Assembly (NCBI GenBank): GCA_022013675.1
Contig: JAKLPW010000276.1
Coordinates: 1-56,196 of the forward strand
DNA length: 56,196 bases
Source: Anaerolineae bacterium
GTDB taxonomy: Bacteria; Chloroflexota; Anaerolineae; JAKLPW01
Direction of reading: 5' to 3'
A model generated the notes under the pieces. The model ran no database searches. It was not told the origin of the DNA and was given only the letters and a program-made list of their open reading frames with translations. Every line of letters begins with the position of its first letter. The stretch's first letter is position 1. Positions 25,953 through 33,048 of this stretch are shown here, piece by piece. Position numbers and translations under genes: made by a program.

Positions 25953-26996
25953 CTACTGAGATCCTTTCATTCGAGGATCGAGGGCGTCTCGCAGTCCGTC
26001 GCCTAGGAAATTGAAGGCGAACATGGTAAGTGCCAGAGCAATGGCTGGGAAGAGCACCAGATGTGGGTAAGATCGCATGGCTCTCGACCCATCTGAAATC
26101 ATAGCGCCCCAACTAGGGGTTGGCGGGTCTACTCCTAGACCTATGAAGCTCAGGAAAACCTCAGTCGTGATGTATCCTGGGATATACAGCGTGACTGTCA
26201 CAATCAGAGGGCCAAGAATGTTGGGAAGTATGTGGCGCGTGATTACGCGCATGTCTCGGGCTCCGATCATGTGCGAGGCCTCGACGAACTCTTTTTCTTT
26301 AAGGGAGAGTATTTGTCCTCTGGTGAGGCGTGCTATCCCCATCCATGCAGTGATTCCGATGCCCATGAAAATGAAAAGCATGCCGCCCCCTTCCAAGCCC
26401 AGTAGACCGTCCACGAAGTGGTTTACCTGGTTGAAGGTGTAGGCAACCGAGCCTGGCTGCTGCGCACTGCCGAAGCTGCTCTTGAAGAAGGCCATGAGCA
26501 GGATGATGAGCAGCATCGTTGGAAAAGCATACATGATGTCGACGATGCGCATCATGGTATTATCTACCTTGCCTCCATAGTAACCGGAGATAGACCCATA
26601 GATCAGGCCGATAAACAGCGCTGTTAAGGCGCCAACGAACCCTACAGGCAATGAGACTCGTGCCCCGTAGACGATGCGGCTAAACAGGTCCCTACCCAGG
26701 AAATCGGCTCCCAGGAGGAACTTGTTTGAAATGGTGGCGTAGGCCTCGACGTTTCCAGGCAGGAGAGGCGCTAGCCAAGTTGGGATTGTGTAGTTCTCGA
26801 CGGAGTCGCCTTCAGCGTAGTGCATGGGAGTGATCTGAGGGGCAAATACCGCTGCCAATATGAGCACGATGATGATAACGCCACCCATAATGGCGGCCTT
26901 GTTTTTTATCAAGCGGCGCCAGGCGTCCAGCCAGAGGTTCGCTACTCGTTGTTCTCTCTGTAGCATACGCGCCTGAGCACGTTCTTGTATTGTCAT
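25953..26996 (-). CDS. oppC: Oligopeptide ABC transporter permease OppC
   Basis: N-terminal WRRLIKNKAA, LGAD.LGRDLFSR, EAA loop EFVEASHMIGA, PTPSWG and GDGLRDALDPR. Confidence 0.93.
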   Translation of the reverse strand: MTIQERAQARMLQREQRVANLWLDAWRRLIKNKAAIMGGVIIIVLILAAVFAPQITPMHYAEGDSVENYTIPTWLAPLLPGNVEAYATISNKFLLGADFLGRDLFSRIVYGARVSLPVGFVGALTALFIGLIYGSISGYYGGKVDNTMMRIVDIMYAFPTMLLIILLMAFFKSSFGSAQQPGSVAYTFNQVNHFVDGLLGLEGGGMLFIFMGIGITAWMGIARLTRGQILSLKEKEFVEASHMIGARDMRVITRHILPNILGPLIVTVTLYIPGYITTEVFLSFIGLGVDPPTPSWGAMISDGSRAMRSYPHLVLFPAIALALTMFAFNFLGDGLRDALDPRMKGSQ

Positions 26997-27040: not shown

Positions 27041-27988
27041 CTACGTGTACCGGATCCTGGGATCCAGGAAAGCATAAGTGATGTCCACTAGCAAGTTGGC
27101 TGCGACGAGGAAGACGGCATAGAGCAGGATGGCACCCATGACCACGGGATAGTCACGGTTCCCTATGCTGACGATGAAATATTTTCCTAGTCCTGGGATT
27201 GCAAAAATCTGTTCCACCACAAATGATCCCGTGGTAACGGCAGCGAATAGGGGCCCCAGAACGGTGGCTACGGGAATGAAGGCATTCTTCATGGCATGTT
27301 TGACCATGACAGCTCGTTCCGAGAGACCTTTGGCGCGCGCGGTGCGGATGTAGTCTTCGCGGATGACCTGCAACATTGAGGCGCGGGTCAGGCGAGCAAT
27401 AATGGCTGACGATGGGAGCCCTAATGCGATGGCGGGCATGATCACTTGGGAAGGCTTGCCCCAGCCTGCAACGGGAACCCATTGGAGAATCAATGCGAAT
27501 ATCCAGATCAGTAGGGGGCCCAGAACGATATTGGGTACGGATACCCCAAAGATGGCTAACCCCATTCCCAGGTAGTCATAGACGGTGTTTTGCTTGAGGG
27601 CGGCCAGTACTCCCAAAGGTACGCCTAGACCCACGGAGATAAGCAGTGCCCAAACCCCCAGATTTAAGGAAACTGGCAGGTGAGATGCGATGATGTCATT
27701 CACGGTTCGGCTGCGAGACGTGAACGAAGGGCCGAGCTGCCCTTGGAAGAGGCCACCGTACTCGCCGTTAGGTTTCCTGGTGACGCCTAGGTAGTCTGTA
27801 AACTGCTTCCAGAGGGGCTGATCGAGGCCGTAGTGCTTCTCCAGGTTGGCGATGATCTCGGCGGGAAGGGCCTTCTCTCGATCGAAGGGGCCACCCGGAA
27901 GAGCGTGTGCTAACGAGAAGGTCACCACAGCGATGAAGAAAAGTACCGGAATTGTCCAGAACAACCGTCTTGCGATGTAGCGTCCCAT
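27041..27988 (-). CDS. oppB: Oligopeptide ABC transporter permease OppB
   Basis: Motifs PGGPFD, LGPSF, EAA loop DYIRTARAKGL, VVEQIFAIPGLG, RDYPVV and LDPRI. ATG follows GGAGG. Confidence 0.94.
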   Translation of the reverse strand: MGRYIARRLFWTIPVLFFIAVVTFSLAHALPGGPFDREKALPAEIIANLEKHYGLDQPLWKQFTDYLGVTRKPNGEYGGLFQGQLGPSFTSRSRTVNDIIASHLPVSLNLGVWALLISVGLGVPLGVLAALKQNTVYDYLGMGLAIFGVSVPNIVLGPLLIWIFALILQWVPVAGWGKPSQVIMPAIALGLPSSAIIARLTRASMLQVIREDYIRTARAKGLSERAVMVKHAMKNAFIPVATVLGPLFAAVTTGSFVVEQIFAIPGLGKYFIVSIGNRDYPVVMGAILLYAVFLVAANLLVDITYAFLDPRIRYT

Positions 27989-28025
27989 GTCTTGCACCTC
28001 CTGACAGGCTATTGAATACGCTTGA

Positions 28026-28057
28026 ATTATAGCACTGACCTATCAACCGACTATCAA
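28026..28057 (-). promoter_or_regulatory. oppB promoter with tandem heptamer repeats (SARP-type operator geometry)
   Basis: Minus strand reads TTGATAG-TCGG-TTGATAG-GTCAGTGC-TATAAT. Confidence 0.6.
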
Positions 28058-30975
28058 TGCGCTTGTGTTTTGGGCGCGGCCCGTGATATCCCTGGCTTCA
28101 GCAGGGCGAGAACGATCTCTGCCAGCAGGTCAACGGTTGCCAGGAGGATGGCGTAGAACAAGAGCGTATTGACGAGCACGGGGTAATCCTTGGCCTGGAT
28201 GGTGCTGACGAGATACTGACCCATGCCAGGGATGTCGAAGAGCTGCTCGACGACGAGAGAACTTGCCATCATGGCGGAGGACATGGAGCGTGCAAGGGGC
28301 AACAGAGAGAGCAGGGACATGCGAAGCGTCCGCCAGAGCAGGAGCCTGTGGGCGTGCTGCCGCTGGGGCATTGCCATGTCCGTGAAGAGCCTGCATTGCA
28401 GCTTCACCATGCTATCGCGCACCGACTGAGCGATCAAAGCGGCAAACCCCAGGCCCAGGGCAGCGCTCGGCAGTATCAGGTGACGCAGCTCTCCCCATCC
28501 AGTGGGGGGTAGCCAGGCAGTAGTGAAGGAGAGAGACCATAGTAACAGTGGCCCCAAGACAATGACAGGGATGGCGAGACCGAACGTTGCCATTCCTGTG
28601 AACAAATAGTCCCAGAAGCTGTCGGTCTTGTGTGCTGCAAGCGCGCCGCAAGAGACCCCCAATCCAATAGCGAATAGAGTGGCTGCTAGACCAAGCCCTA
28701 GAGATGCGGGGAGGTGCTGGCATAGGATGTCGTTGACGGTGCGTTCTGGGGGTATGTATGAGGGGCCAAGATCAAAGTGAAAGACGACGTTGCGCAAGTA
28801 GACCAAATATTGTTCCGCTGGTGAACTGCCTACTCTATAGTACTTCTCGATGGCCCCGATCGTGACCGACGACAGGTGCTTTAGGGAATCGAAGGGGCCA
28901 CCGGGGATGATACGTAGTGTGAAGAAAGCTACAAGAGAAAGAAAAATGATGGAGGCGGTCAGTCGTAGAATTCCTCGAACCCCTCTAGCTACCAGTTCAC
29001 GTTGTCGCTGGTAGCGTCGAAATTGCGTTCTCAGGTGGAAACTCGCTCGTTTCAGGCGCTCTCGATAATTGGCCGGTTGCACTTTGGCTACTCGAAGACG
29101 TAACTGTTCTTCGTGGGTGACACTGATCTCTTCCATGGCCACTTGACGAACTTCCTTGTGTGCGAAGCGAAACTTGCCGGCCATCGTTTCTTGTAGGAAT
29201 CTCAACCGAAGCAGTGCGTCGAGTGCACGAAGGGCTTCAGTCTGGTCGAGTCCGCTAGCACGCTGCACAGTCACGAAGTCGCATCGTTCTCCGGCAACAG
29301 CGGCTGTTAGCAGGAACTCCCGAGTGAAGGGATCAAGTCGTCTCAAGCGTGTCTGGAATAGCTCTCGTATGCTGTTGGGGATTCGCTTTTCGGTGGGTGC
29401 AGTGGATGGGCGGAGAAAGAGCGAACGGGTCAATTCGATGGTGAAGAGAGGATTACCTTCGCTTCTTCTGTGAATGCGTCTTTCCAGAACGTGTCCGCCG
29501 ATACCTTTGGTGATGTGTCGGACAAGCTGACCTGTTTGATCGGCATTCAGACGAGAGAGGGTCAAGTGCTTGGCTTGGCTCTTCACTTCCAGGTTGTGCA
29601 GCACGGCTTCCGCAGGAGGAGACAGTTCCTCGGCACGATAGGCCACTATGAAAAGAATGCGCTCGTCTCTGAGTGAGTGGACCAGGTATGCTAGCAGATC
29701 GCTGCTAGCCGCATCTGACCACTGACAGTCGTCCAGAAACAGAGTCGCCGGCCTTCGTTGAGTGATTTCTCTCAAGATAGCAGTCAGAAGCGGCGCTAGC
29801 TGCCGCAGTCTGTTTTCGGATCCCTCTGTCATCCGAGCAACAGATTTGCCCCAGCCTGATAGGTATTTCCGTAGATCCATCCAGCGATAACCACTGTCAG
29901 ACGGCGAGATGCTTTCCCACAAGGACAGAACTGCACGCAGAATAGGGATGAATGCCTGGTAGGGCAGGGGAGACTCCATGGGATAGCAGTGGCCAGCAAG
30001 AACAGCAATGCGTCTTGTAGTCTGGCGGGCCAGGAATTCCTCAATCAGACGTGTCTTGCCGATGCCTGCTTCCCCTTCCACCAGCAGTACTCTGGCCTGA
30101 CCTCTAATAACAGCGTCCAGGGAGTTGTTCAGGAGATTCAACTCTAGATCTCGATCAACCAGGGGTAGACGTTCCTCGCCGAGGAGAAAGGAAGTCTTCC
30201 ACTCGGGCAACTGCTCCTGTTTCAGGATACTCTCGCCCATCAAAAGAGCGTGGATCTCCTGTGTTTCGTCGCTAGGAGCGGTGCCAAGCTCAAGTTCCAA
30301 TACCTCACGGCACTTCTCGTAGGTACGGAGGGCGGCAGCGCGATTGCCTTCACGGTGATACAGGCGCATTAATGTGCAGTATGCACTTTCCTGAAGAGGA
30401 TCGGCTCGCAGAGCATCAAGGGAGTACTTGATGGCTTGCCCATAGTTGTGACGCTGTTGATGGTAGTATGCCAGTTGCTCCAAGAGCGAGATGTAGGCAA
30501 GATGCAAGGCTTCGCGTCTGAATCGGGTCCATACTGAGAAAGCCTCGTTCTCCTTGAGAATGAAGCCATCCAAAAAGCCTTCTCGGTATAGTTCAATGAC
30601 CCGTACCGCTCTGTTGATGGAGAGAGCGTCGGGGGCGGTGGATATCCCTTCCAGAGCATGCTCGAACTCCTCAACGTCTACCCAATAGTCGCTGCTATCG
30701 CTGAGCTGAACCCATTCCCATGTAGCGATGATATGATTGCTACCGGGTAGTGCTTGACGGAGTTTGTAGAGTGCATCGTTAAGGCTGCGGCGAGCGTGGC
30801 GTTCGTCACTATCTTCCCAGAACATGGTGGCTAGTTTCCCGCGAGATATGGGAGCCTGAGCTTCCAATGCCACGTAGAAGAGTAGCGCCATGGCTTTCTG
30901 GGACGTCAGCGCGATAGGCTGGCCGGCGTACTCGATTCGTGGAGATCCTAGGAGATAGAGCTTCAGGGTTGGCAT
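28054..30975 (-). CDS. Fusion protein: SARP-type winged HTH + BTAD + STAND ATPase + OppB-like ABC permease domain
   Basis: HTH/BTAD: LYLLGSP, LL.YVAL, SRGKLA..FW, DVEEF, LY..GFL, DPLQESAY..LMRLY, ELGTAPS. NTPase: GEAGIGKT, LFLDDCQWSD, SEGNPLF. C-terminal ~310 aa: PGGPFD, LGPSY, VVEQLFDIPGMG, KDYPVL. ATG at 30975 has an RBS-like GAGGAAAG. Confidence 0.88.
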   Translation of the reverse strand: MPTLKLYLLGSPRIEYAGQPIALTSQKAMALLFYVALEAQAPISRGKLATMFWEDSDERHARRSLNDALYKLRQALPGSNHIIATWEWVQLSDSSDYWVDVEEFEHALEGISTAPDALSINRAVRVIELYREGFLDGFILKENEAFSVWTRFRREALHLAYISLLEQLAYYHQQRHNYGQAIKYSLDALRADPLQESAYCTLMRLYHREGNRAAALRTYEKCREVLELELGTAPSDETQEIHALLMGESILKQEQLPEWKTSFLLGEERLPLVDRDLELNLLNNSLDAVIRGQARVLLVEGEAGIGKTRLIEEFLARQTTRRIAVLAGHCYPMESPLPYQAFIPILRAVLSLWESISPSDSGYRWMDLRKYLSGWGKSVARMTEGSENRLRQLAPLLTAILREITQRRPATLFLDDCQWSDAASSDLLAYLVHSLRDERILFIVAYRAEELSPPAEAVLHNLEVKSQAKHLTLSRLNADQTGQLVRHITKGIGGHVLERRIHRRSEGNPLFTIELTRSLFLRPSTAPTEKRIPNSIRELFQTRLRRLDPFTREFLLTAAVAGERCDFVTVQRASGLDQTEALRALDALLRLRFLQETMAGKFRFAHKEVRQVAMEEISVTHEEQLRLRVAKVQPANYRERLKRASFHLRTQFRRYQRQRELVARGVRGILRLTASIIFLSLVAFFTLRIIPGGPFDSLKHLSSVTIGAIEKYYRVGSSPAEQYLVYLRNVVFHFDLGPSYIPPERTVNDILCQHLPASLGLGLAATLFAIGLGVSCGALAAHKTDSFWDYLFTGMATFGLAIPVIVLGPLLLWSLSFTTAWLPPTGWGELRHLILPSAALGLGFAALIAQSVRDSMVKLQCRLFTDMAMPQRQHAHRLLLWRTLRMSLLSLLPLARSMSSAMMASSLVVEQLFDIPGMGQYLVSTIQAKDYPVLVNTLLFYAILLATVDLLAEIVLALLKPGISRAAPKTQAH

Positions 30976-31144
30976 TTCTTTCCTCTCCGATCTTACCGAG
31001 AGATCAATGATCATGCGTATTATACCACAAATGAGCAGATGATCGAGGCGAGCGTCGGGAGGTAGCAATTTGGTGTCTGAGAGAGTGGAAGAGGAGCGCG
31101 AGGGTTCTACTGCGGGGTGATGGACTTTGTGGAGATAAGTCATG

Positions 31145-31231: not shown

Positions 31232-31528
31232 ATGGACAACAGGTCTACAGAGGGGATGGATTGCCCGAACTGTGGCGTTTACAACCCTGCTGGCCGGGCT
31301 GTATGCTGGCGATGCGACCGGGAATTGCCGAAGCCCAAAGAACAGAAGCGACGGAAACCATTCTGGAGTGGACAGTCTTGGGTGTATATATTGATGGCTG
31401 TCTTGATTCTCTTCTCCCTGCTGCAGCTTTGCGGCTTGCCCAGTGTACCGGGTGGGGATGAATCTGGATCCCTGCGTTTCTTTTTCTGTGAAGCAGATAG
31501 TTTGGTGAACCTGCTGCTGGTTATGTGA
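31232..31528 (+). CDS. Small zinc-ribbon membrane protein
   Basis: ATG after GGAGG; CPNCG...CWRC, then a basic patch and one TM helix. Confidence 0.7.
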   Translation: MDNRSTEGMDCPNCGVYNPAGRAVCWRCDRELPKPKEQKRRKPFWSGQSWVYILMAVLILFSLLQLCGLPSVPGGDESGSLRFFFCEADSLVNLLLVM

Positions 31529-31621
31529 CGACAGGGTCAGGGGTTGGCACTAGCTTCGTTGACTTGGTGTCTGCGAATTTCTTGCTAACAATAAGCTGAG
31601 TTAGCTAGTCGATGAGCTTGT

Positions 31622-31855
31622 TCAGTGGTTAGCTATTAGTGCTTCGATGGCAAGGACGTCGATTGCGCGGAAGTCCTCTATCCATAGATTAGCATCCGGC
31701 AGCTCTGCCGGCATATAGCCGGTGGTGACGGCAACACAACTCATGTTTGCGGCGACAGCAGCACTCACTCCGCTAGGGCTGTCTTCAAAGACCACGCACC
31801 GACCTGGACGGACACCCAGCTTCTTCGCGGCCAGGAGAAATATCTCCGGATGTTT
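31622..31855 (-). pseudogene. 5'-truncated HAD-superfamily phosphatase (beta-PGM/CbbY-like) fragment
   Basis: Hand translation gives KHPEIFLLAAKKLGVRPGRCVVFEDSPSGVSAAVAANMSCVAV...*. An in-frame TAA lies at 31871-31873 and there is no DxD motif I. Confidence 0.8.
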
Positions 31856-31950
31856 GTGAACCTGTTGCCTTTACTGTTACAATCGCGTAGGTGGTTAGTA
31901 ATGCTAATGCTCCCCGCCTCTGCAATTGTGGAGCACCCACGAGGAAATGA

Positions 31951-33048
31951 ATGCGGCGATACTTACCAGTAGTGATTGCACTACTAAGCCTCTTGAATCT
32001 CGCTTTTCGACCGGCTGTTTTGACCGAGTCCGATTTCGCGCGCTATCAGGTCTCGCCTTACCAGATAGAGCAAATGGTGCCTCGTCCCATGCCAGAACTC
32101 AGTGCCAAAGCGGCGCTGCTGATGGATGGGACTTCGGGAACGATTCTGTATGCCAAGAGTGAACATGATCGTCTGGCTCCAGCCAGCACGACGAAGATGG
32201 TTACGGCATTGGTGGCTGTGCAAGGGGCTAATCTGGGAGATCATGTTGCTATCATGCCCAGCGATCTCTTCGTAGGCTCGTGCATGGGCCTGTCGACTGG
32301 CGAGGAGCCAACCATAGAGGAACTTCTGTACGCTTTGCTCTTGGTGTCGGACAATGCGGTGGCGGTGACCATCGCGCGGCATGTTGCCGGATCAGAGAAG
32401 ACCTTCGTGGGTCTTATGAACCAGTGGGTTACGGAGCATGGGCTCCAAGACACACACTTCTCCAACCCCCAGGGCTTCGATGAGACGATGCATTTCTCGA
32501 GTGCCTACGACCTGGCTATCATTGGGCGTCAATTGATTCAGAGTCGAATTCTGACCTCGATTGTGGCCACCAAGGAACAGTGGGCTGCGTCGCGCCTGTT
32601 GGAGAATACTAACGAGCTATTGGGCACGTATGCTGGTGCCAACGGTGTGAAAACTGGCACAACAGATGCCGCTGGCCAGTGCCTGGTGGCTTCGGCGAAG
32701 CGGGACGGGGGATGGGTTGTGGCGGTGGTGTTGGGCAGTCAGGATCGGTATGCTGATGCTCGAGCTTTGCTAGATTACTACTTCACCGGATACTTTCAGA
32801 CATCGTTGAGTCTGGAACCCTCTCCGTTGGCTAGAATTCAGATAGAGGGAGGAGAGTGGCGTCCTCTGGTTGTGCGAGATGATGCGCAGGTTCTCTTGAC
32901 TCGATGGCAGGTGGGATATTTACGCAGTTTCCTTTGGATTGATACGGCGAACCTATCTCCGGGCTTGGGAGAGGCAGTTGGACGGGTAACGTATGATCTG
33001 TTCGGTCAGACTGTTGCAGAACTCCCTGTCTACATAGGGGGCTACTAG
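31951..33048 (+). CDS. D-alanyl-D-alanine carboxypeptidase (peptidase S11)
   Basis: Signal peptide; SxxK (ASTTK), SxN (SDN), HF.NP.G and KTG. Confidence 0.92.
   Translation: MRRYLPVVIALLSLLNLAFRPAVLTESDFARYQVSPYQIEQMVPRPMPELSAKAALLMDGTSGTILYAKSEHDRLAPASTTKMVTALVAVQGANLGDHVAIMPSDLFVGSCMGLSTGEEPTIEELLYALLLVSDNAVAVTIARHVAGSEKTFVGLMNQWVTEHGLQDTHFSNPQGFDETMHFSSAYDLAIIGRQLIQSRILTSIVATKEQWAASRLLENTNELLGTYAGANGVKTGTTDAAGQCLVASAKRDGGWVVAVVLGSQDRYADARALLDYYFTGYFQTSLSLEPSPLARIQIEGGEWRPLVVRDDAQVLLTRWQVGYLRSFLWIDTANLSPGLGEAVGRVTYDLFGQTVAELPVYIGGY

Follow-up and report, generated by a model that had tools for sequence, protein, structure and literature searches.

The minus strand of a 56,196-nt stretch of DNA from an Anaerolineae bacterium (assembly GCA_022013675.1, contig JAKLPW010000276.1), referred to below as the window, carries a gene for a 973-residue protein in which a regulator of the SARP-STAND type, consisting of a predicted OmpR-type winged helix, a BTAD domain and a STAND ATPase, continues through a basic linker into a membrane domain resembling OppB, a permease subunit of the peptide importers of the ATP-binding cassette (ABC) class. 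Canonical oppB and oppC genes follow this fusion gene in the order fusion-oppB-oppC, all three being transcribed in one direction, and their neighbors are housekeeping genes; no oppA, oppD or oppF is present in the window. The established parts of the case are the architecture of the fusion, its conservation among relatives as distant as 42% identity, the selective disappearance of the coupling loop on the cytoplasmic side of its membrane domain, the presence of a candidate SARP box in front of oppB, and the relocation of the oppBC pair. In the sections below, we describe the protein and its family, the features of the membrane domain and of the oppB promoter, and the proposal that the fusion may act as a membrane-integral activator of oppBC.

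Architecture of the fusion protein

The fusion gene is a single uninterrupted frame of 973 codons (Table 1). A longer listed frame of 1029 residues, 28054..31143, opens with an upstream ATG at 31143, and this start was ruled out on two grounds: it is not kept in L014, a metagenome contig that encodes a fusion 91% identical to that of the window (883/973 positions) with oppB downstream, and in which the ATG is missing and a 2-bp gap and a TAA come next; and it disagrees with the N-termini of the family, since all five other members begin with MPTLK or MPSLK in a six-sequence alignment, which points to the ATG at 30975, itself preceded by a GGAGAGG ribosome-binding site.

The BTAD domain of the N-terminal module scores well above its Pfam cut-off (PF03704, 67.1 bits vs 22.1), and the winged helix is weak in the window protein (Trans_reg_C, 20.9 bits, under the cut-off of 26.2); in P0010, the most divergent family member, the two domains reach 73.4 and 29.6 bits, the latter over the cut-off. 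Foldseek matches this module to the SARP domain of AfsR in transcription complexes (8k60_J, TMt 0.76; 8hvr_I, TMt 0.77) and also to EmbR. The ATPase that follows is recognized as AAA_16 (86.6 bits against a cut-off of 32.6), matches the AAA_16/TPR part of the NCBIfam model TIGR03903, and resembles in fold STAND and NLR proteins including MalT. Its Walker A motif GEAGIGKT (residues 301-308), its Walker B motif LDDxQW.D (412-421) and the GNPLF sequence of the GxP motif (507-511) are invariant in all six members of the family. The fusion gives no match to NB-ARC (PF00931) at E<=0.01 in Pfam and its ATPase is of the AAA_16 kind, so that it is not an AfsR orthologue.

The C-terminal part is equally well delimited. 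BPD_transp_1 (PF00528) is matched with 59.2 bits (cut-off 26.4), and the last 300 residues match OppB/NikB-type permease models of NCBIfam end to end, far under the equivalog cut-offs: on the OppB model NF007008 the fusion reaches 168.3 bits against a cut-off of 388, of which the neighboring OppB, with 305.5 bits, falls short by far less. The permease half aligns end to end with that neighboring OppB (37% identity over 297 columns, E 4e-62) and with E. coli OppB (8z21_A, query 16-309 on chain 10-304, E 2.8e-43), to which its modeled fold is also close (TMt 0.89, root-mean-square deviation 2.6). The AlphaFold2 model, which was built from a 74-row alignment and has a mean predicted local distance difference test score (pLDDT) of 89.7 and a predicted TM-score of 0.55, defines the domains well but not their mutual arrangement; it shows six membrane helices with short outer loops only, and it draws the linker (pLDDT 69-77) and the first transmembrane helix (TM1) as one unbroken helix, residues 634-689. 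OppB-type permeases have a cytoplasmic N-terminus, and the fusion is therefore topologically sound.

What the membrane domain appears to have displaced can be read from the relatives of the regulatory half. In all seven non-fusion SARP-AAA_16 proteins scanned, namely the four best-scoring ones, two lower in the list and the paralogue of this genome, TPR repeats stand C-terminal to the ATPase, whereas Pfam finds no TPR match in the window fusion or in P0010; the permease therefore occupies the position of the sensor. The original prediction, made from the letters of the sequence alone, had proposed one open reading frame starting at 30975 and combining SARP/BTAD, STAND, linker and permease, with intact Walker A, Walker B and GNP motifs and with the permease in place of the sensor, and in each of these respects, the last as a matter of position, it is confirmed by the profile matches and by the family alignment.

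Table 1. Coordinates of the fusion gene, its parts and the adjacent opp features in the window
Feature	Position	Strand	Basis
Fusion gene, 973 aa (SARP + STAND ATPase + linker helix + OppB-like putative pseudo-permease)	28054..30975	-	Pfam, NCBIfam, translation; start by family alignment
SARP module, aa 1-250, predicted OmpR-type winged helix + BTAD	30226..30975	-	Pfam, Foldseek
STAND domain, AAA_16 type, aa ~265-632	29080..30183	-	AAA_16 score, motifs, Foldseek
Arg/Lys-rich linker, 35 residues, aa 634-668	28972..29076	-	AlphaFold2 secondary structure
OppB-like six-helix membrane domain, aa 669-963	28087..28971	-	Pfam, NCBIfam, 8z21_A alignment, fold
Degenerate TM4-TM5 cytoplasmic loop at the EAA coupling helix position, aa 854-893	28297..28416	-	Column conservation, model
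Candidate SARP box, two perfect 7-nt direct repeats, 11-bp period	28040..28057	-	Sequence, L014
-10 hexamer TATAAT of the oppB promoter, 8 bp 3' of the second repeat	28026..28031	-	Sequence
oppB, canonical permease; likely start ATG 27988 after AGGAGG	27041..27988	-	Pfam, NCBIfam, alignment
oppC, canonical permease, modeled partner of the fusion membrane domain	25953..26996	-	Pfam, NCBIfam, complex model
Promoter-like TGgTATAAT (extended -10), ~45 nt 5' of the fusion ATG	31019..31027	-	By eye; identical in L014

Distribution and authenticity of the family

Six full-length fusion proteins were collected, the other five being 91, 83, 83, 75 and 42% identical to the window protein. All six are intact open reading frames of 968-1017 residues on separate contigs, they align without frame problems, and they share one junction, which persists at 42% identity. 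Among long proteins, a word-index search that ranked 8000 candidates by their permease part yielded six, of which four are fusions including the query; the three others (P0005, P0006 and P0007; 968-1017 residues, 70-84% identical in the permease part, on contigs of 34-130 kb) likewise combine BTAD, AAA_16 and BPD_transp_1. The only other long protein among these results that matches the permease part well (E 1e-28) is P0008, an apparent OppB-OppC fusion of 619 residues with BPD_transp_1_N, BPD_transp_1 and OppC_N domains. HMMER gave 147,303 matches at E<=0.001 among 1.84 billion representative proteins; two of the best 150 span both halves, P0005 and P0010 (980 residues, about 42-43% identity, aligned 1-959 to 1-958), and the other 148 end by query residue 719.

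Further searches point the same way. One of 42 relatives on metagenome contigs spans both halves, none of the best 80 loci (from at least 600 stretches) in a scan of genome contigs passes query residue 667, and among the 150 matches listed for 40 same-class genomes none lies across both halves outside G000, the genome that carries the window. Another apparent fusion, a 1004-residue open frame around OppB in genome G036, was rejected, as it consists of separate oppA and oppB genes in high-GC DNA. Further members of the distant branch were sought with the membrane part of P0010, and nothing beyond P0010 and P0007 came up. The nearest SARP-STAND homologues include metagenome-assembled genomes (MAGs) labeled Chloroflexota, Acidobacteriota and Actinomycetota. 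As judged from these sequences, the fusion family is rare but conserved.

The joint between the two halves is present in material gathered independently. Two other studies yielded contigs that run across it (X3 record 9, corresponding to 27900-29295 with 0 differences, and X2 record 4, corresponding to 28624-29130), and near-identical sequence occurs in runs from 14 studies, mostly of groundwater metagenomes. In run X6, 7 of 30 depth bins lack cover between 28328 and 29076, from which we draw no inference, and nothing is drawn either from a 197-nt contig of an RNA library on 30892-31088, which may be DNA carry-over.

Selection was estimated as the ratio of nonsynonymous to synonymous substitution rates (dN/dS) from one pair of sequences, the window and L014. 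The whole fusion has a dN/dS of 0.35 at a dS of 0.125, below 1 with a one-sided Fisher p of 3e-11; the SARP part gives 0.32, the ATPase part 0.29, the linker 0.12 over 48 codons, and the membrane domain 0.54 (p 0.015), its core alone reaching 0.70, which is not significantly below 1 (p 0.25). The first 97 codons of oppB give 0.07, next to which the fusion as a whole is far more relaxed. The constraint on the fusion is real but looser than that on the working permease, and in our judgment it is argued more strongly by the fact that the architecture is still intact at 42% identity.

These data bear directly on the possibility that the gene is a relic or an artifact, that is, a chance in-frame join created by misassembly or deletion and now under neutral decay. 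Such an origin could be suspected from the rarity of the family (one of the species genomes searched, six sequences), from a dN/dS above that of oppB, and from the spacer behind the fusion stop, which is polymorphic for insertions and deletions. It is nevertheless hard to credit: the six frames are intact on separate contigs with the same junction to 42% identity, two other studies bridge that junction, dN/dS lies below 1 (p 3e-11), the ATPase motifs are invariant, and identities of 42-91% exclude copies of one misassembled template. The original prediction had named read support for the junction (~28950-29150), the dN/dS of both halves and the finding of a singleton or artifact as the points on which it would stand or fall; the junction is spanned, the fusion lies in the range of purifying selection, the core of the membrane domain excepted, and the protein has five relatives.

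The membrane domain and the oppB promoter

To compare the membrane domain with ordinary permeases, the six fusion domains were aligned with 16 canonical OppBs, namely the neighboring one and 15 from same-class genomes. A column was taken as conserved when kept in at least 90% of the 16 canonical sequences and as kept in the fusions when found in at least five of the six, and the segment borders, although drawn by eye, match the modeled helices. In the canonical proteins, the cytoplasmic loop between TM4 and TM5 (…REDYIRTARAKGL.ER…HALKN..IPV…) is nearly invariant, and the neighboring oppB carries it intact (EDYIRTARAKGL); this is the EAA loop, the coupling helix that docks the ATPase subunit (PMC12136057). 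Of its 24 conserved columns, 17 are kept in none of the fusions and one in at least five, and the glycine and the RTA/RAKG core are missing from all six. In the outer TM1-TM2 region, by comparison, 13 of 18 conserved columns are kept and none is lost throughout. Over the whole domain, 5 of 33 cytoplasmic columns are kept as against 40 of 70 elsewhere (Fisher p 5e-5).

The same pattern recurs within the family: no other long segment varies as much as the EAA loop (6 invariant positions of 40, vs 22 of 64 in the outer loop), and the outer-face motifs PGGPF, QY..YL, DLGPSY, VE..FD.PGMG and DYP are unchanged even in the member with 42% identity, whereas the cytoplasmic loops diverge. In the AlphaFold2 model, the loop has shrunk to an 8-residue connection of low confidence (residues 867-874), and the C-terminal LDPRIRY tail of the canonical OppBs is altered in the fusions. 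The end-to-end likeness to OppB that had been predicted by eye therefore stands as regards the extent of the alignment but not as regards the content of the cytoplasmic EAA loop. Because the coupling loop is lost, the membrane domain is, as far as its sequence tells, a pseudo-permease and not an ordinary transporting subunit: it would retain the fold and the outer-face and membrane motifs but lack the surface on which the motor docks.

Pairing with OppC had also been predicted, and multimer modeling favors it. The membrane domain (residues 650-973, 6-row alignment) was modeled with OppC (24-row alignment), and in each of three runs the interface score ipSAE was 0.74, the best of three controls giving 0.00; 58 of 80 solved complexes attain this mark, as do 2 of 110 mismatched pairs, counts that are only a rough guide here because we used our own alignments. 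The three runs share at least 90% of their contacts, which run through TM1, TM3, TM5 and TM6, and the partner pLDDT is at least 75. OppB-OppC and DppB-DppC complexes have already been solved (8z21 and 8z1v), and the favorable score may reflect only likeness to them.

The modeled pairing, the full-length OppB-like fold and the shared direction of transcription with oppBC would also suit a working transceptor, in which the membrane domain is a third Opp permease that still transports and the attached regulator reports the flux. We regard this as very improbable, since a single one of the 24 conserved EAA columns is kept and the Gly and RTA/RAKG core are gone from all six members, the LDPRIRY tail is changed, the score of 168 bits lies far from the 388-bit OppB equivalog cut-off of NCBIfam, and the window holds no ATPase gene.

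The genes that the fusion adjoins have themselves been rearranged. In three relatives (G001, G023 and G028), whose OppC proteins are 72-75% identical, the order is oppA1-oppB-oppC-oppA2. On contig C138 of the genome that carries the window (locus L057, 415-4907, minus strand), oppA1, oppA2 and an oppD/F-type ATPase gene with an oligo_HPY domain are contiguous, with nothing between the two oppA genes, and oppA1 has an ordinary promoter (TTGACG-16-TATAAT). Because the relatives hold oppBC between the oppA genes and C138 lacks it there, the gene orders indicate that the oppBC pair has moved out of an oppA-B-C-A2 operon to its place behind the fusion gene and the box described below. The genome is a MAG of 526 contigs with an estimated contamination of 5.8%, for which reason a common origin of C138 and C212 in one organism is likely but not proven. 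An oppA paralogue on another contig, C49, begins with what by eye is a lipoprotein-type signal (…LVGGC), which hints at a monoderm cell.

The oppB promoter reads, from 28057 to 28026, TTGATAG tcgg TTGATAG gtcagtgc TATAAT, and is followed by AGGAGG and the oppB start; the upstream repeat overlaps the TGA stop of the fusion. No -35 element stands at 16-18 nt from the TATAAT, the two TTGATA hexamers lying 9 and 20 nt away from it, and a sigma-70 consensus scan finds no minus-strand promoter at this site. SARP targets are described as direct repeats with a spacing of 11 or 22 bp, in a box that overlaps a poor -35 and whose 3' repeat is separated from the -10 by 8 bp (PMC10936776), and the candidate box agrees with this geometry exactly in silico. 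An exact TTGATA-N5-TTGATA occurs once in the 3.94-Mb genome, and with up to three mismatches, a gap of 7-9 nt and TAnnnT there are five sites, the sole perfect one being that of oppB; a loose pattern, any 7-mer repeated with up to one mismatch, occurs 106 times in 7,884,542 nt of this genome, so that only the perfect TTGATAG site counts as strong. The box is kept in L014 (TTGATAA/TTGATAG), where about 410 bp separate it from the fusion stop. Since a candidate box of the SARP kind forms the oppB promoter, oppBC is a credible target of the fusion, as had been predicted, the binding itself being a prediction.

Boxes were also sought at related genes. The only other SARP-STAND gene of the genome, a paralogue of SARP-AAA_16-TPR type (C79, locus L056, 7800-11605, minus strand), is followed by a terminator-like hairpin, by TTGACAC tttt TTGATAC ctctgtgc TATACT, which has the same geometry, and by a small open reading frame (MSNNRDPGPP…), and these may form a second regulator-target pair of the same design. 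A box directly downstream was rejected as a habit of SARP-STAND genes in general: the 19,371 nt lying 3' of about 46 such genes hold one box, that of C79, and the background is six boxes in 1,520,656 nt of SARP-STAND loci. Autoregulation of the fusion through a box of its own was likewise discarded, by eye only, as no SARP-type repeats precede the TGgTATAAT, and neither the oppA1 promoter of C138 nor the DNA upstream of oppA on C49 showed a SARP box. A generic repeat scan brought up a further group of sites, near-identical tandem TGTTAACC-N3-TGTTAACC…TATACC and TTTGTAACCTG repeats on C37, C53, C306 and C307 (and on C45 and C504), which could be a dispersed repeat or the sites of another regulator.

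Some observations on the surrounding DNA may be recorded here. The spacer between the fusion stop and the oppB promoter (28057-28078; 4270-4700 in L014) varies through insertions and deletions: L014 has about 410 bp more of it, and in run X6 one contig carries 247 other letters at 28074/28078. The last residues of the window fusion (…PKTQAH) are encoded by DNA that in L014 lies upstream of oppB, and the C-terminal tails of the family members differ accordingly. On the other side of the fusion gene, a 98-residue open reading frame (31232-31528, plus strand) runs divergently and has a zinc-ribbon-like start (CPNC…CWRC) and a hydrophobic stretch; 94 of its 98 residues are identical in L014, there on the minus strand. 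Beyond it, at 31620-31870 on the minus strand, a HAD-type hydrolase gene (…IFLLAAKKLGVRPGRCVVFEDSPSGV…) survives as no more than its last ~75 codons, which are preceded by stop codons, and a D-Ala-D-Ala carboxypeptidase gene (31951..33048, plus strand) lies directly against this remnant. In L014 (1-720, plus strand) the same hydrolase gene is open for at least 239 residues, and in the window it appears to have been truncated by rearrangement.

A proposed mechanism and its relation to known systems

We propose, with a probability of about 0.6, that the fusion is a membrane-integral SARP-STAND activator of oppBC, in which a pseudo-permease stands in for the TPR sensor and links the ATP switch with the membrane part of a transporter, probably beside OppC. 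The TPR sensor would have given way to a paralogue of the peptide-transporter subunit OppB. The pseudo-permease would tether two fusion protomers to the membrane, so that their SARP modules could lie on the two repeats of the box and, as a pair, recruit RNA polymerase to an oppB promoter that has no usable -35. The membrane domain might sense by taking the place of OppB beside OppC, and its state would set the ATP-dependent STAND switch through the continuous helix formed by the linker and TM1; the signal could be a binding protein with its peptide, free OppC, or something else.

Several observations weigh against this proposal. As regards the target, the conservation of the box rests on one relative, L014, the DNA context being available for two of the six family members; TTGATA could be taken for a -35 hexamer; the paralogous SARP of C79, or another factor, might also read the box; and about 45 SARP-STAND genes of other genomes have no such box within 400 bp downstream, so that an adjacent downstream target is not a family habit. 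As regards the membrane domain, the relaxed selection on its core and on the fusion as a whole, described above, counts on the same side, the membrane domain of P0010 falls under Pfam detection of BPD_transp_1 at E 1e-3, and the modeled OppC interface is not conserved beyond its surroundings (13 of 45 positions invariant, vs 72 of 250; p = 1.0). A SARP activates as a side-by-side dimer, and a heterodimer of the OppB-like domain with OppC carries one fusion protomer, so that oligomerization through the ATPase must be assumed. As regards the switch, the motif at the end of the nucleotide-binding oligomerization domain (NOD), whose equivalence to the STAND latch was judged by eye, reads FAH in three members and FAY in the other three; the MHD-like latch histidine, found as F/Y-HD in AfsR (bioRxiv 10.64898/2026.09.02.748808), would thus be replaced by tyrosine in half of the family.

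A further difficulty concerns the input. In DppB, the scoop-loop residues E41 and R42 touch the binding protein (PMC12136057), and each of the 16 canonical OppBs has a corresponding [E/D]-K pair, of which none of the six fusions keeps the acidic residue and three keep the lysine. Because this pair is lost, engagement of OppA in the canonical manner is doubtful on the sequence evidence. The original prediction had the permease docking peptide-loaded OppA, probably with OppC, and signaling across the membrane to activate oppBC; the replacement of the sensor, the conservation, the junction, oppBC as target and the pairing with OppC find support, whereas the docking of OppA is called into question by the loss of the scoop-loop pair and by the absence of oppA, oppD and oppF from the window.

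One alternative is that the pseudo-permease is an anchor only, which tethers and perhaps dimerizes the SARP-STAND part, while ATP/ADP, a cytoplasmic ligand or proteolytic release sets its activity. The losses of the cytoplasmic coupling surface and of the charged pair of the scoop loop, the ordinary conservation of the modeled OppC interface and the relaxed dN/dS of the membrane domain would all be expected of an anchor, and membrane-tethered activators with a winged helix-turn-helix, such as CadC and ToxR, do exist (PMC5430869). A six-helix permease fold is, however, a costly anchor, the invariance of the outer-face motifs down to 42% identity speaks for constraint on the outer and membrane parts, and the position upstream of oppBC together with the relocation of that pair fits a role linked to the transporter; on balance, we consider the anchor unlikely.

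A more specific form of our proposal is tentative: that the activator is a membrane-embedded NLR-like switch, the pseudo-permease being the sensor beside OppC, perhaps under a binding protein, and reading the state of the importer, by way of the linker-TM1 helix and the ATPase, into the transcription of the importer's own permease genes. If this were true, the fusion would be without precedent both as a membrane-integral SARP and as a STAND regulator whose sensor is a transporter fold. The sensors known from STAND and NLR switches are soluble repeats, and the SARPs known to activate antibiotic clusters are soluble proteins; the fusion wires both to a membrane transporter fold. It would offer a compact case of a transporter subunit turned sensor, with the motor-docking loop lost and the outer face kept, a case for a signal that crosses the membrane into an ATP-driven oligomerization switch, and a SARP-type "sigma adaptation" promoter that controls nutrient uptake, outside the usual antibiotic context. 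Rarity limits the reach of the family, and its value would lie in the mechanism and in the example of domain recruitment. The original prediction knew of no described protein with this architecture, and a search of main texts, few of them from subscription journals, brought up no regulator of the SARP/BTAD or STAND kind joined to an ABC permease, though the supplementary architecture tables of STAND or SARP surveys may contain one.

Among known systems, the large SARPs are the nearest to the regulatory half. AfsR and PolY, and the SARP-LAL proteins PimR, SanG and FilR, share with the fusion the N-terminal OmpR-type winged helix, which in the fusion is a predicted one, and BTAD followed by a STAND ATPase, the SARP fold of the fusion matches that of AfsR (TMt 0.76-0.77), and the candidate site obeys the SARP repeat rule. 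In AfsR, the NOD and the TPRs hold the SARP module inhibited until ATP binds (PMC10936776). The fusion has neither TPRs nor a LuxR-type end but a six-helix membrane domain in that place, its ATPase is of the AAA_16 and not of the NB-ARC kind, the AfsR model of NCBIfam covers only its SARP part (15 bits vs a cut-off of 1430), and its repeat is TTGATAG, with transporter genes rather than a biosynthetic cluster as the apparent target. A review of SARPs recognizes only the classes small, medium, large and SARP-LAL, does not use the word "membrane" in its main text, and describes SARPs as "exclusively found in actinobacteria" (PMC10972967); a passage of a 2026 survey of STAND proteins names transmembrane parts only as effector domains.

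With OppB and DppB of the type I peptide importers (8z21 and 8z1v), the fusion shares fold and topology, a match over the whole length of the permease, and the outer-face and membrane motifs, but it lacks the EAA loop, the LDPRIRY tail and the charged pair of the scoop loop, and it carries 668 cytoplasmic residues at its N-terminus. In its proposed logic the fusion resembles MalT with MalK: in both cases a STAND-type activator of transporter genes is tied to the state of an ABC importer, which for the fusion is a proposal. MalK inhibits MalT, and the fold search lists the MalT of 8bob ("negative regulation of the maltose system"). In the maltose system, however, it is the ATPase subunit that is coupled, non-covalently, to MalT, a soluble protein whose output is of the LuxR type, whereas the fusion has a permease-derived domain in the same chain and a SARP output.

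CadC has the transporter LysP as a co-sensor, another logic that the fusion as proposed would resemble. Like the fusion as predicted, ToxR and CadC tether a cytoplasmic N-terminal OmpR-type winged helix to the membrane and unite input and output in one protein (PMC5430869), but they do so through a single membrane helix and a periplasmic sensor, have no BTAD or STAND ATPase, and leave the transporter as a separate co-sensor, where the fusion has six helices of its own. CrbS and CbrA also join a transporter-derived membrane domain covalently to a signaling module (PMC5715377); there the transporter is a secondary one of the SLC5 family and the output a histidine kinase, while in the fusion an ABC permease and a DNA-binding activator share one chain. 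The fusion would act as a large SARP does at the DNA end and shares traits with the MalT, ToxR/CadC and CrbS systems, but it belongs to none of these families as they are defined.

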